From: a virus
Taxonomy: Duplodnaviria > Heunggongvirae > Uroviricota > Caudoviricetes
Length of the DNA: 9,351 nucleotides
Virus record (IMG/VR): IMGVR_UViG_2713896779_000023
Reading direction: 5' to 3' (one strand)
Below the pieces are notes generated by a model, which did not search any database, was not told where the DNA came from, and saw only the letters and a program-made list of their open reading frames with translations. Shown piece by piece: positions 1,412-8,355 of the stretch. Positions within the stretch are counted from its first letter, which is position 1. The number at the start of each line of letters is the position of its first letter. The translations under genes were made by a program, and so were the position numbers.

Positions 1412-1461
1412 NNNNNNNNNNNNNNNNNNNNNNNNNNNNNNNNNNNNNNNNNNNNNNNNNN
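1412..1461. other. run of 50 N (masked or unresolved sequence)
   Basis: Literal n characters; interrupts gene X. Confidence 1.
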
Positions 1462-2397: not shown

Positions 2398-2640
2398 ATG
2401 AAAAAATCAGAAGTATTAGGCTATTTTGGCGGAGTTGTTAAAACAGCCGCCGCTCTAGGAACGTCAAAAACCACAGTCAGCATGTGGGGGGAAGACGTTC
2501 CGTGGAAATGGGCGTTGCTAATTCAGGCAGTCACTGCCGGGGCGCTCAAATATGAGTTACACATACCGACGGTTGTCATTCCCGATTCTGATCATAATCC
2601 GCCTTCTAACCAAGGGGGGATTCATGAAAATCAAGCATGA
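2398..2640 (+). CDS. Cro/YdaS-like small HTH regulator (80 aa from ATG 2398; ORF-track start 2350 is probably too far upstream)
   Basis: GGAG at 2388-2391 lies 6 nt before ATG 2398. HTH-like segment VVKTAAALGTSKTTVSMW. Position and orientation match cro. Overlaps the next gene by 17 nt. Confidence 0.7.
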   Translation: MKKSEVLGYFGGVVKTAAALGTSKTTVSMWGEDVPWKWALLIQAVTAGALKYELHIPTVVIPDSDHNPPSNQGGIHENQA

Positions 2641-3049
2641 ACACATCCGCATGGCGATGAATGCCTGGGCGCGTCCTGATGGCGAAAAAGTTCCGGCAGC
2701 TGGAATAACCCAGGCTTATTTTGAGTTGGGTATGACGTTTCCTGAACTGTACGACGACAGCCATCCGGAAGCCCTGGCTCGCAATACCCAGAAAATTTTC
2801 CGCTGGATAGAGAAAGACACCCCTGATGCAGTTGAAAAAATGCAGGCTCTGTTACCGGCGATCGAAAAGGCAATGCCGCCTCTGCTGGTGGCCCGTATGC
2901 GCAGTCACAGCTCTGAATATTACCGTGAGATCGTCGAACGGAGGGATCGGCTGGTGAAAGATGTGGATGATTTTGTCGCAGCGGCGATCGCCTGGGGCAC
3001 CCTGACTAACAGTGGGGGGCAGCCTGGTAATGCTGTTGTCGTGCATTGA
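2624..3049 (+). CDS. YdaT-like protein at the cII position (141 aa)
   Basis: AGGGGGG at 2612-2618 precedes ATG 2624. The N-terminus MKIKHEHI matches my recollection of the Rac prophage YdaT family. It follows a YdaS/Cro-like gene. Confidence 0.6.
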   Translation: MKIKHEHIRMAMNAWARPDGEKVPAAGITQAYFELGMTFPELYDDSHPEALARNTQKIFRWIEKDTPDAVEKMQALLPAIEKAMPPLLVARMRSHSSEYYREIVERRDRLVKDVDDFVAAAIAWGTLTNSGGQPGNAVVVH

Positions 3050-3117
3050 CCAACAATATTCATGCCGGATTTCTTCCGGATGTTCGAGGGTAAAGTTCGG
3101 TATCAGAAGAGGTGAGT

Positions 3118-4185
3118 ATGGCTAATGCCTGGCTCAGATTGTGGCATGACATGCCAAATGACCCCAAGTGGCGAACGATTGCCAGGGTATCAGGACAGCC
3201 AATCGCAACAGTGATGGCAGTGTATATCCATCTTCTGGTGAGTGCGTCACGAAATGTCACGACATGTCACGGCGTGTCACTACGTGGTCACATTGATGTC
3301 ACGACGGAAGATTTAGCAAGTGCGCTTGATGTGACGGAAGACGTAATTGATTCAATTTTGCATGCAATGCAGGGGCGGGTTCTGGATGGTGACCTTATTT
3401 CCGGATGGGAAAAACGTCAGGTGCTGAAAGAGGACAATGGTAACGTTTCGCAAACGGCAAAATCCCCGGCAGAGCGCAAGAGAGCGCAGCGGGAGCGGGA
3501 AAAGCTGCGGAAACATAATGCTGATTGTCACGATGAGTCACGACGTGTCACGCATCTGTCACGACAAGTCACGACAGATAAAGATACAGATAAAGATACA
3601 GATAAAGATACAGATAAAGATACAGATACAGAATTAAACCCCACACATAACGCGCGCGAGAGTATTCCGACCAGTGAGTCGAATGGTGCGCCGTTGCAGA
3701 CAGCCGAACCTGAATACCTGGACGGCCTGAGCGAACCGATCGGGAAATTTCCGATGACTACTGTCTGGCAGCCGTCGCCGGATTTTCGACAACGGGCAGC
3801 AGTGTGGGGTATGGCTCTGCCTGAGCCGGAATTTACACCTGCTGAGCTTGCCGCATTCCGGGATTACTGGATGGCGGAGGGGAAGGTTTTCACGCAGGTT
3901 CAGTGGGAGCAGAAATTTGCCCGCCACGTGCAGCACGTCAGGGCACAGGTAAAACCAGTCAGCAAGGGGGGAAGCCATGCAGCATCAGGTGGCACGGCAT
4001 CACGGGCAGTTCAGGAAATCCGGGCTGCACGCGAACAGTGGGAACGTGACAACGGATTTATCAGCAACGGAAACGGCCTGGAAGCTGTGGGAGCTCATGG
4101 GGGAGGTGTATTCGAACCGCTGGACTCAGAAGAACGGGGCCGCACCTTCGAAGCTCTGGATTGCCCAGATTGGTGCGATGACTGA
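3118..4185 (+). CDS. replication initiator (lambda-O-like role) with internal iterons and a (DKDT)n linker
   Basis: GAGG at 3109-3112 lies 5 nt before ATG 3118. The gene sits immediately upstream of a P-like gene. It contains two clusters of about 10-bp-periodic GTCACGAC repeats and a 12-bp tandem repeat, an architecture like ori-lambda inside O. The N-terminal sequence is not obviously lambda O, so the family is uncertain. Confidence 0.7.
   Translation: MANAWLRLWHDMPNDPKWRTIARVSGQPIATVMAVYIHLLVSASRNVTTCHGVSLRGHIDVTTEDLASALDVTEDVIDSILHAMQGRVLDGDLISGWEKRQVLKEDNGNVSQTAKSPAERKRAQREREKLRKHNADCHDESRRVTHLSRQVTTDKDTDKDTDKDTDKDTDTELNPTHNARESIPTSESNGAPLQTAEPEYLDGLSEPIGKFPMTTVWQPSPDFRQRAAVWGMALPEPEFTPAELAAFRDYWMAEGKVFTQVQWEQKFARHVQHVRAQVKPVSKGGSHAASGGTASRAVQEIRAAREQWERDNGFISNGNGLEAVGAHGGGVFEPLDSEERGRTFEALDCPDWCDD
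3244..3308. repeat. iteron cluster 1: about 6 copies of (T)GTCACGAC-like motif at roughly 10-bp spacing
   Basis: cgtcacga 3245-3252, tgtcacgac 3255-3263, tgtcacgg 3265-3272, tgtcact 3275-3281, ggtcaca 3285-3291, tgtcacgac 3298-3306. Confidence 0.6.
3526..3576. repeat. iteron cluster 2: 5 copies of (T)GTCACGAC at 10-11-bp spacing; candidate replication origin
   Basis: tgtcacga 3527-3534, gtcacgac 3538-3545, tgtcacg 3547-3553, tgtcacgac 3557-3565, gtcacgac 3568-3575; immediately followed by an A-rich tandem repeat. Confidence 0.65.
3577..3630. repeat. perfect 12-bp tandem repeat GATAAAGATACA x4 plus a partial GATACA
   Basis: Read directly from the sequence; encodes DKDTDKDTDKDTDKDTDT inside the initiator gene. 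Confidence 0.9.
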
Positions 4186-4639
4186 ACAGCAAATCCGTCT
4201 GGTGTGCCGTCAGTGCATGGACCGCTGCCGGGCGGGTGAAACGTGGCCCCCGGACCTGGCTGAGTTTGTTGCGCTGATTTCGGAGAGTGGGGCAAATCCA
4301 TTTGGTCTTACGGTGGATGCCGTGATGGAAGAGTACCGGCGCTGGCGCAATGAATCCTGGCGATACGACGGGAGTGATAAATACCCGTGGCCACAGCCTG
4401 TGCTGTACCACATCTGCCTCGAAATGCGTACCAGAGGGATTGAGCGCCAGATGACGCAAGGTGAGTTAAAACGACTTGCGGAACGGCAACTGACGAAATG
4501 GGCAAAGCATGTTGGTAACGGGATGAGTGTTCCGCCAGTGCGACGACAACTGGAAGGGGCGAAACACCCGCAAGGGCCAACGCCAATTGAACGGCTGAAA
4601 CAGGAATACGAACGCCGGAAGGCAGCTGGTTTTATTTGA
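3977..4639 (+). CDS. lambda-P-like replication protein (helicase loader); start uncertain (3977, 4097 or 4178)
   Basis: By-eye similarity to lambda P in several blocks (ETWPPDLAEFVAL, YPWPQPVLYHICLEMRTRG, GELKRLAERQLTKWAKHVGNG). AAGGGGGG at 3964-3971 lies 5 nt before ATG 3977. Overlaps the initiator gene in a different frame. Confidence 0.7.
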   Translation: MQHQVARHHGQFRKSGLHANSGNVTTDLSATETAWKLWELMGEVYSNRWTQKNGAAPSKLWIAQIGAMTEQQIRLVCRQCMDRCRAGETWPPDLAEFVALISESGANPFGLTVDAVMEEYRRWRNESWRYDGSDKYPWPQPVLYHICLEMRTRGIERQMTQGELKRLAERQLTKWAKHVGNGMSVPPVRRQLEGAKHPQGPTPIERLKQEYERRKAAGFI

Positions 4640-4672
4640 ATCTGAGAAACGATTTTGTCGGAGGAAATATTA

Positions 4673-5389
4673 ATGGAAACCGTATTTGACGCACTGAAAG
4701 CACTGAAAAAAGCCTCTTCACAGGTAGTGGCATCGCGCCTTGGAATCAGCCGCGAAGATGCTGTCAACGAACTGTGGAAACTGAAGCGCCGTGGTGAAGC
4801 GGATAACAAGGGGTCGATGTGGTGGCTGACTCAGACTGGTGAAAGTGAACCAGTGTCACCGGTACCGAAAGTGACAGCGCAAATGCTGACTGAGGCGATT
4901 GAACATCATGGCCCACAAACGGCGGATGAGCTGGCACTGATGTTCGGGATTACCTCCCGCCGGGCGAATTCATCACTGGCCATGGCAATCAGCAAAGGGC
5001 GTCTGATTCGCGTGAATCAGGGCGGTAAATTTCGGTACTGCATACCGGGCGCTGATTTACCGGCAGAGCCGAAAGCCGCATCCATAACGGAAACGGATGG
5101 TAAAGCCTTTCCTCAGCCAGCAGGTGTTGCGTTACCAGTCGGGGAAGCGGAAACACAGGAAGAAATAAAAACGGAAAGTGTGGCGGTCACAGTGCAGTCA
5201 CAGCCGTCGTTCACCAGAAAGCATCCGGATGGTCTGATTTTACCATCGCTGCATGTGGCTAACCGCGAGCTGCGCCGGGCAAAAGGTCAGGTTCAGAAGT
5301 GGGAGCGAGTCTGCGCCGCGCTGCGGGAGCTGAACAAGTGCCGGGATATTCTCCGGGATATTACCGCCACCAGAGAACAGCAGCGGTGA
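4673..5389 (+). CDS. hypothetical protein with two winged-helix-like segments (238 aa from ATG 4673; ORF-track start 4655 is TTG)
   Basis: GGAGG at 4659-4663 lies 9 nt before ATG 4673. HTH-like segments [17 protein letters not shown] and [19 protein letters not shown]. Function unknown. Confidence 0.6.
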
Positions 5390-7314: not shown

Positions 7315-7364
7315 NNNNNNNNNNNNNNNNNNNNNNNNNNNNNNNNNNNNNNNNNNNNNNNNNN
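7315..7364. other. run of 50 N (masked or unresolved sequence)
   Basis: Literal n characters. Confidence 1.
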
Positions 7365-8305: not shown

Positions 8306-8355
8306 NNNNNNNNNNNNNNNNNNNNNNNNNNNNNNNNNNNNNNNNNNNNNNNNNN
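8306..8355. other. run of 50 N (masked or unresolved sequence)
   Basis: Literal n characters; the frame relation across it is undefined. Confidence 1.

Follow-up and report, generated by a model that had tools for sequence, protein, structure and literature searches.

The subject of this analysis is a 9,351-nucleotide (nt) stretch of tailed virus DNA (IMG/VR record IMGVR_UViG_2713896779_000023; Caudoviricetes), called the window below, and within it the junction of two plus-strand genes, one for a replication initiator and one for a lambda-P-like helicase loader (the P-like gene, or P). The two genes share 209 nt, at positions 3977-4185, with P read at +1 relative to the initiator. This overlap is probably genuine and evolutionarily maintained, between two co-directional, separately translated genes of a lambdoid replication module. 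An earlier reading of the same letters (the original prediction) had pointed to a run of six G residues at the beginning of the overlap and had offered three explanations: a genuine overlap, a frameshift at the G run, or an O-P arrangement needing slippage. The first is borne out by homologues from about 20 genera, which show a similar overlap, and the other two did not hold, for reasons set out below.

The overlapping initiator and P genes

The initiator gene runs from ATG 3118 to TGA 4183-4185 on the plus strand and specifies 355 amino acids (aa). That its frame stays open as far as this TGA, as had been proposed, was confirmed from the open reading frame (ORF) and its translation, and the RefSeq coordinates are identical. 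The protein consists of a presumed origin-binding part at the N-terminus, a DnaT-like single-stranded DNA-binding domain, a linker, one conserved helix and a disordered tail. The DnaT-like domain occupies residues 211-277 (nt 3748-3948; PF17948, E=1.6e-17), solved chains of the DnaT C-terminal domain match residues 207-276 (E about 1e-20), and the protein is also matched by PHROG replication-initiator families. In an AlphaFold model of the C-terminal 161 aa, the DnaT-like domain had a predicted local distance difference test score (pLDDT) of about 91, the linker lying over the Shine-Dalgarno (SD) sequence and ATG of P was disordered, and a helix was predicted at about nt 4003-4050, corresponding to initiator residues of about 296-311 (RAVQEIRAAREQWERD; 102-117 of the 161 modelled). 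The tail beyond, which includes the peptides GVFEPLDSEER and TFEALDCPDWCDD, scored below 50 over nt 4081-4182.

The proposed full-length P gene occupies 3977-4639 on the plus strand and specifies 220 aa plus a stop codon. Its frame is open from 3953 and contains three ATG codons of interest, at 3977 (220 aa), 4097 (Met41; 180 aa) and 4178 (Met68; 153 aa). The 220-aa form matches PF06992 from residue 58 (57.9 bits, with the cut-off at 26; E=1.3e-15) and PHROG 109 over residues 18-220 (E=1.5e-62), in agreement with the suggestion that P homology begins upstream of 4185. A profile of the P family matched the lambda P chains 8v9t (E=2.4e-6) and 8v9s (E=5.4e-6), and BLASTP aligned residues 85-192 with residues 94-202 of lambda P, placing R85 opposite lambda R94. 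Colinearity with lambda P (233 aa) is seen for the 220-aa form alone, and homologues of 215-223 aa occur in many genera. With family matches above the curated threshold, and both homology and colinear length with lambda P, the product has the attributes of the lambda P-type loader family and is predicted from its sequence to be a lambda-P-like loader of DnaB. In the AlphaFold model of the 220-aa form, residues 1-25 had pLDDT values below 50, followed by helices at 24-45, 47-53 and 59-67 with values of about 85.

Stand-alone P-like genes were also found, intact and in chromosomal contexts, in Erwinia spp. (L034, 2926-3552, 208 aa; L043, 2974-3543, 189 aa). Within the 6-kb loci examined, neither had an initiator ORF immediately upstream, and one of the two adjoins an ORF resembling a phosphotransferase system (PTS) transporter. 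They may be orphan or domesticated helicase-loader genes.

To follow the junction across related elements, an alignment of 26 P homologues was used to fetch 37 loci from contigs representing one genome per species, and the fetched loci, once E. coli and phage loci had been added, yielded a set of 37 intact arrangements, no two identical, which represent about 20 enterobacterial genera, including Escherichia, Salmonella, Citrobacter, Enterobacter, Klebsiella, Pluralibacter, Kluyvera, Pectobacterium, Serratia, Yersinia, Rahnella, Rouxiella, Erwinia and Samsonia. The exceptions, which stand outside the 37, were the two orphan P genes just described and two decayed copies, L042 (with an indel) and L045 (with stops). 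In all 37 loci the initiator stop lies in the same relative frame, 46-94 nt upstream of the P motif WPPDLAEF (61 nt in the window), and the P frame is open from an ATG 240-273 nt upstream of that motif. The overlap is about 190-215 nt in every intact homologue. The original prediction had proposed that homologues be inspected for an initiator stop near the equivalent of position 3976; none of those examined has one, and the initiator extends past this point in all 37. The loci are well diverged, forming 24 clusters at a third-position divergence of at least 40%, and 12 at a divergence of at least 50%. Two marks of a genuine overlap are therefore present: both ORFs and their lengths are kept in divergent orthologues, and the second gene carries a start signal of its own that lies within the first.

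The G run is part of that start signal. The SD sequence of P, AAGGGGGGA, lies at 3964-3972 on the plus strand, inside the initiator coding sequence, and contains the G6 run at 3966-3971. As the original prediction had noted, the P-frame ATG at 3977 follows the run, and the octamer AAGGGGGG (3964-3971) is placed five bases before it. The calculated energy of the duplex with the anti-SD sequence at 3964-3972 was -11.0 kcal/mol. Across the 37 loci the mean SD energy at the distal ATG was -9.6 kcal/mol against a background of -2.95, with 81% of loci below the 5th percentile of the background, while the corresponding means were -5.2 kcal/mol at the Met41 ATG and -3.6 kcal/mol at the Met68 ATG. For the two weakest values (L031 and L037) the first ATG in range had been taken, and an ATG preceded by GGAGGT occurs 12-15 nt further on.

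Close relatives have AAGGGGGTAAGCC, AAGGGGGGAAGCC or AAGGGGGGGAACC at this position, that is G5T, G6 or G7 with the length of the segment unchanged, so that the run differs among relatives by substitution and never by indel, as expected of a ribosome-binding site and not of a slippery or erroneous site. Other genera carry CCGGAGGTAAC, ACGGGAGGTAC, AACGGAGGTTC or CGAGGGGGAAA, followed by an ATG 5-9 nt later. The purine-rich motif is kept although it gives differing residues in the initiator (KGG, KGV, TGG, ARG, NEV, QGE), and it is therefore the nucleotides that are conserved, not the initiator protein. Most E. coli relatives have a TAA in the P frame, two codons ahead of the distal ATG, so that slippage would have nothing upstream to connect with P. 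From these sequence features, the G6 run is most readily interpreted as the SD site of P. Folding of 3925-4035 gave no indication of an RNA structure hiding the ribosome-binding site of P, the result being indistinguishable from shuffled sequences (z = -1.19). The same octamer recurs at 2612-2619, 4 nt before the annotated ATG (2624) of a YdaT/cII-like gene.

Selection in the two frames

The original prediction had raised the prospect of dual coding over about 209 nt, and had proposed that codon conservation be examined in each frame. For this, the initiator-tail alignment was back-translated and variability was measured by codon phase. In the part of the alignment that codes for the initiator only, the initiator wobble position was the most variable (0.42 vs 0.17), and this was also so in the first part of the overlap, segment A (3988-4056, plus strand), at 0.59 (0.587) vs 0.40 and 0.34. 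In the last part, segment B (4081-4182, plus strand), it was the P wobble position that varied most, at 0.40 vs 0.26 and 0.21 over 4081-4140 and 0.52 vs 0.34 and 0.26 over 4141-4182, as it did in the P-only part that follows (0.59 vs 0.30 and 0.25).

Ratios of nonsynonymous to synonymous change (dN/dS) were estimated with a simplified OLGenie-type method, in which changes are classed as synonymous or not in each frame and intervals are obtained by codon bootstrap. In segment A the initiator frame gave 0.19 [0.07-0.37] and the P frame 1.1-1.5, with an interval that includes 1. This segment is selected as initiator, with the motif ASRAVQEIRAAREQWER, and P residues of about 4-27 form an unconstrained, disordered leader over it; the initiator helix is found here in 37/37 loci, six of which have initiators without a DnaT-like segment. 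In segment B the P frame gave 0.11 [0.05-0.19] and the initiator frame 0.95-1.05, again with an interval that includes 1. Segment B is selected as P (AWKLWELMGEVYSNRWTQKNGAAPSKLWIAQIGAM and the helices of the P fold), while the tail of the initiator is unconstrained, predicted to be disordered, and kept open. Between the two lies a hand-over zone (4057-4080, plus strand), where the dominant frame switches and where a linker is variable in both sequence and length in both frames. All indels of the 37-locus alignment in this zone are multiples of three, and no conserved slippery motif was found there.

In neither segment A nor segment B were the same nucleotides under purifying selection in both frames at once, and selection is thus partitioned between the frames, not simultaneous. 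The expectation of dual coding stands in so far as both frames are open over the whole overlap, but at the amino acid level each frame is selected in its own segment and never both together.

The openness of both frames exceeds chance. Stops in the alternative frame have a density of 4.1-5.5 per 100 codons in the flanking single-coding parts, and after synonymous codon shuffling the P frame remained open in 50% of cases in segment A, and the initiator frame in 26% in segment B, per locus. Both frames are open in 37/37 loci; the third frame is open only in 7/37 and 13/37. In segment B, a T that would create an initiator-frame stop was present in 0/128 at-risk codon pairs, vs 29% at equivalent pairs downstream in P. 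Since the clusters are diverged, this is more than shared ancestry. P-synonymous divergence in segment B was 6-24% below that of adjacent P-only codons, for pairs chosen on an independent segment.

Several points weigh against the reading of two fully translated genes and deserve to be set out together. The dN/dS estimator was our own simplified implementation, used on 23-34 codons, and the intervals for the frame near 1 are wide. The loci are phylogenetically related and the stop-avoidance trials are not independent, so no formal probability is given for them. A drop of only 6-24% in P-synonymous divergence means that constraint on the initiator tail is weak, and amino-acid-level selection on this tail is not claimed. 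The dN/dS values are near 1 for the leader of P (residues 1 to about 30) as well as for the tail of the initiator (the last 35 residues or so), and the case for their translation is made, at the level of sequence, only by stop avoidance, the conserved SD and ATG, and conservation of the ORFs. Finally, Met41 is nearly invariant, and a second start there is possible.

The start of P and competing explanations

Databases differ by up to 80 residues on the length of P. The RefSeq/PGAP entry, named replication protein P, begins at ATG 4178 in every E. coli genome inspected, giving a protein of 153 aa and an overlap of 8 nt; in a set of Shiga toxin (Stx) phage records the start is later still (140 aa, no overlap); the usual model in Salmonella, Citrobacter and Klebsiella has 180 aa, equivalent to a start at ATG 4097; and many records, together with metagenomic gene calls, give 215-223 aa. 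The homology, conservation and predicted fold of P all begin upstream of the annotated starts, and the distal ATG is the sole P start common to 37/37 loci. Met41 is present in 36/37, and Met68 is missing in 8/37. Before Met68, conservation reaches 90% or more at R48, W49, K52, N53, G54, P57 and W61, even where overall identity is as low as 45%, and the segment consensus upstream of Met68 is AWxxWxxMGEIYSNRWTxKNGxAPSxLWIAQIG among the 26 aligned P homologues. The orphan P genes keep the motif of segment B with no overlapping initiator at all, which argues that this segment is conserved for the sake of P. Conserved residues A34, W35 and W38 lie further upstream, before Met41, and are found in the orphan genes too. 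The real P protein is most likely the 220-aa form.

The strongest competitor, although an unlikely one, is a shorter overlap of 89 nt, in which P would start at ATG 4097 (Met41 of P, 4097-4099, plus strand) as in the 180-aa annotations of other genera, with ATG 3977 unused. This would sit well with the near universal occurrence of Met41, with the neutral evolution and predicted disorder of P residues 1 to about 30, and with the presence of a weakly SD-like TGGGAG (W-E codons) just upstream. Against it, the 180-aa model loses conserved residues (A34, W35 and W38) plus half of a helix, which is predicted to begin at residue 24, and one locus (L025) has CTG in place of this ATG. The SD energy at Met41 is near background, vs that of the distal site, which is conserved across genera, and every locus keeps the P frame open beyond the distal ATG, against an expectation of 0.50 per locus.

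Much less probable is the RefSeq model, with P starting at ATG 4178 and coupled to the initiator stop, and no long overlap. At this junction, ATGACTGA (4178-4185, plus strand), Met68 of P overlaps the stop TGA 4183-4185, which itself arises from the P codons ACT-GAA; the original prediction was correct that start and stop overlap even with this latest start. Besides being the PGAP annotation in E. coli, it is an ATGA-type stop/start, the classical coupling arrangement, as in lambda O-P. However, ATG 4178 has no SD in addition to its absence from some loci, and a start there would remove 67 residues of the loader, including 33 strongly conserved P-frame residues in a region with a P-frame dN/dS of 0.11, and three predicted helices. 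In lambda P, the position equivalent to Met68 is preceded by 78 residues, and replication function is abolished by deletion of residues 9-86 (PMC3640518). Given the conserved residues, the predicted helices and the colinearity with lambda P, the 153-aa and 140-aa models are therefore truncated, and it is possible that a 153-aa isoform is made beside the long P.

A programmed +1 frameshift or recoding event, at 4057-4080 or at the initiator stop, could in principle yield an initiator-P fusion, and is equally improbable. Two observations point in that direction: the frame under selection changes from initiator to P at 4057-4080, and PHROG 15931 (482 positions) is matched by the initiator at 1-347 and by P at 279-482, as if one of its members were fused, which suggests that the family contains either a fused initiator-P ORF or a misaligned mixture. 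The switch zone, however, is the variable, motif-free hand-over zone described above, P is equipped with a conserved SD and ATG of its own, the initiator frame stays free of stops beyond the switch, something for which a fusion would have no use, and no RNA structure stands out (z = -1.2). For the same reasons, namely the separate start signal of P and the lack of a conserved slippery motif in the hand-over zone, the idea of an O-P arrangement needing slippage was abandoned. A protein-collection search with the C-terminal 161 aa of the initiator gave partial proteins for the most part and revealed no widespread initiator-P fusion. The sole hybrid in the collection, P0106, is a singleton derived from a deletion; P0148 is likewise a singleton deletion product, and P0160 a singleton truncated just after the SD region. 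The junction lacks the features of a programmed frameshift site, given the substitutions in the G run, the variable junction, the SD and ATG of P and the TAA upstream.

Least credible of all, to the point of being negligible, is a frameshift at the G6 run, by error or recent mutation, that extended the initiator ORF or split an ancestral arrangement: homopolymer runs are common sites of indel errors, but the run here varies by substitution alone, bases 3000-4800 agree fully with a complete genome, 32 records match at 99% identity or more, the initiator ends at a similar place in every genus without a stop near 3976, and both proteins are as long as their orthologues, the yardstick by which the survey of prokaryotic genomes cited below recognized a real overlap. 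Sequencing or assembly error was excluded by the complete-genome identity together with conservation across genera.

Possible function, context and known systems

Under the favored reading, of two genes translated separately through a long overlap, ribosomes on the initiator message would read through to TGA 4183-4185, and other ribosomes would start independently at ATG 3977, by way of AAGGGGGG, to make the 220-aa loader. The arrangement would be tolerable as the constraints do not collide: over the first 80 nt or so, the conserved helix of the initiator would be paired with a P leader that is disordered and free to change, and over the last 100 nt or so the opening helices of the P fold would be paired with an initiator tail that is likewise disordered and free to change. 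Lambda P is toxic to cells (PMC3640518, PMC4926192), and a P start inside a translated gene may limit how much of a potentially toxic loader is made. It is also possible that the overlap keeps a cognate initiator tail and loader N-terminus together through mosaic recombination.

The type of initiator tail co-varies with the type of loader. The tail found in the window occurs with the P family of the window, and a lambda-like tail (TDWI.GV) pairs with a lambda-type P both in lambda and in another locus (L050, 2501-4079), where an initiator with a DnaT domain and the tail DWNNTDWIEGV is paired with a 258-aa lambda-type P that has a lambda-like N-terminus, the called overlap being only 29 nt. In a third case, from E. 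coli 2013C-4974 (L046, 828-1898), the N-terminal origin-binding part of the initiator is as in the window and the C-terminal half differs, ending in EPDTEIPPGFRG, which indicates a mosaic junction in the middle of the initiator gene. This tail (EPD.EIPPGFRG) resembles the C-terminus of E. coli DnaT, and the next gene, which does not overlap that of the initiator, is a frameshifted one for a DnaC-like 'ATP-binding protein'. As the tail co-varies with the loader, the short C-terminal helix of the initiator is a good candidate for a loader-recruiting element in this initiator family, and may act as one; it counts against this proposal that it draws on few examples of co-variation and on knowledge of lambda O and P.

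It is a more tentative idea that the overlap is a functional device and not a tolerated accident, serving as a unit of co-inheritance, as a throttle and possibly as the source of a short isoform. A loader-recruiting helix encoded inside the 5' leader of the loader, with loader helices encoded under the initiator tail, might cause the two surfaces to be inherited as one inseparable unit in module exchange between lambdoid phages. Ribosomes elongating on the initiator might cross the ribosome-binding site of the loader, thereby throttling a toxic, DnaB-sequestering protein and setting the ratio of initiator to loader, and in the E. coli lineage the ATGACTGA junction might also yield a 153-aa P isoform.

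The window represents the early-right region of a lambdoid prophage, and its bases 3000-4800 show 100% identity to E. coli O121 RM8352, a complete genome. Among complete E. coli genomes, 2610/5426 match the replication module or part of it, 657 of them over at least 80% of the 1.8-kb query, and the Stx-phage-rich O157 and O121 lineages are among those matching. The gene order begins with a cI-like repressor on the minus strand, followed on the plus strand by a Cro/YdaS-like ORF (2350-2640), the YdaT/cII-like gene (2624-3049), the initiator (3118-4185) and P, and then, directly 3' of P, by a gene for a DUF1627 protein (4670-5389; PF07789, E=8e-79). DUF1627 genes are listed as conserved neighbours of the prophage small RNAs PasA and PasC (2026 preprint); an Rfam scan of the whole window matched no family. 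The ATG of the YdaT/cII-like gene sits 17 nt inside the Cro/YdaS-like ORF, a second and shorter overlap of similar build. Three runs of exactly 50 N occur in the window (1412-1461, 7315-7364 and 8306-8355), and ORF calls across them are unreliable.

The initiator gene has internal repeats. Copies of (T)GTCACG with a 10-nt spacing form two clusters (3246-3305 and 3527-3583), and after these comes a 12-nt tandem array, ACAGATAAAGAT, of about 4.5 copies (3574-3633), which encodes DKDT repeats. By analogy with the iterons within lambda O, the internal repeats are probably the phage origin.

The closest known parallel is lambda O-P, which has a similar gene order, with a cII-like gene, an initiator whose own gene contains origin repeats (candidate ones in the window) and a P-type loader. 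In both, the loader gene starts, in another frame, before the initiator gene has ended, the overlap being 4 nt (ATGA) in lambda and 209 nt here. The window initiator differs from that of lambda in its DnaT-like domain and its C-terminal tail, and the N-terminal region of its P differs from that of lambda P and is not aligned by BLASTP. Long out-of-frame overlaps are known in phages, and in the Rz/Rz1 genes of lambda two proteins are read in different frames from one stretch of the same strand. Unlike that type of overprinting, it is only the termini that overlap here, and no segment is under purifying selection in both frames. In lambda itself, an early report, as cited in PMC3640518, describes a read-through O' product that extends into the 5' part of P; no likeness was seen by eye between this extension of the O frame and the tail of the window initiator. 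An O-like initiator with a DnaT C-terminal domain is also paired with a P-family protein in DopC/DopE (Brezellec et al. 2017, PMC5509034), as it is here, but that is a domesticated chromosomal system of other bacterial orders, and the word 'overlap' is absent from the paper. A literature search found no description of an initiator/P overlap and no experimental studies of this initiator family, which is weak evidence as most subscription journals were outside its coverage. The overlap is a new form of the lambda-type initiator-loader junction.

These results have consequences both for annotation and for the understanding of overlapping genes. The short P models drop an N-terminal region that is needed for function in lambda P, a systematic annotation error that accompanies a well-supported, genuine co-directional overlap of about 200 bp. 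Its persistence can be understood from the way in which the structured, selected parts of each protein lie over the disordered, free termini of the other. In a study of 338 prokaryotic genomes, no genuine co-directional overlap longer than 60 bp was found, the longest real one being holD-rimI, at 56 bp (32-56 bp across orthologues) (Palleja et al. 2008, PMC2478687). Like the initiator/P junction, holD-rimI is a conserved, co-directional terminal overlap that was judged to be real by way of its orthologues; that of the window, at about 190-215 bp across homologues, is found in a prophage.

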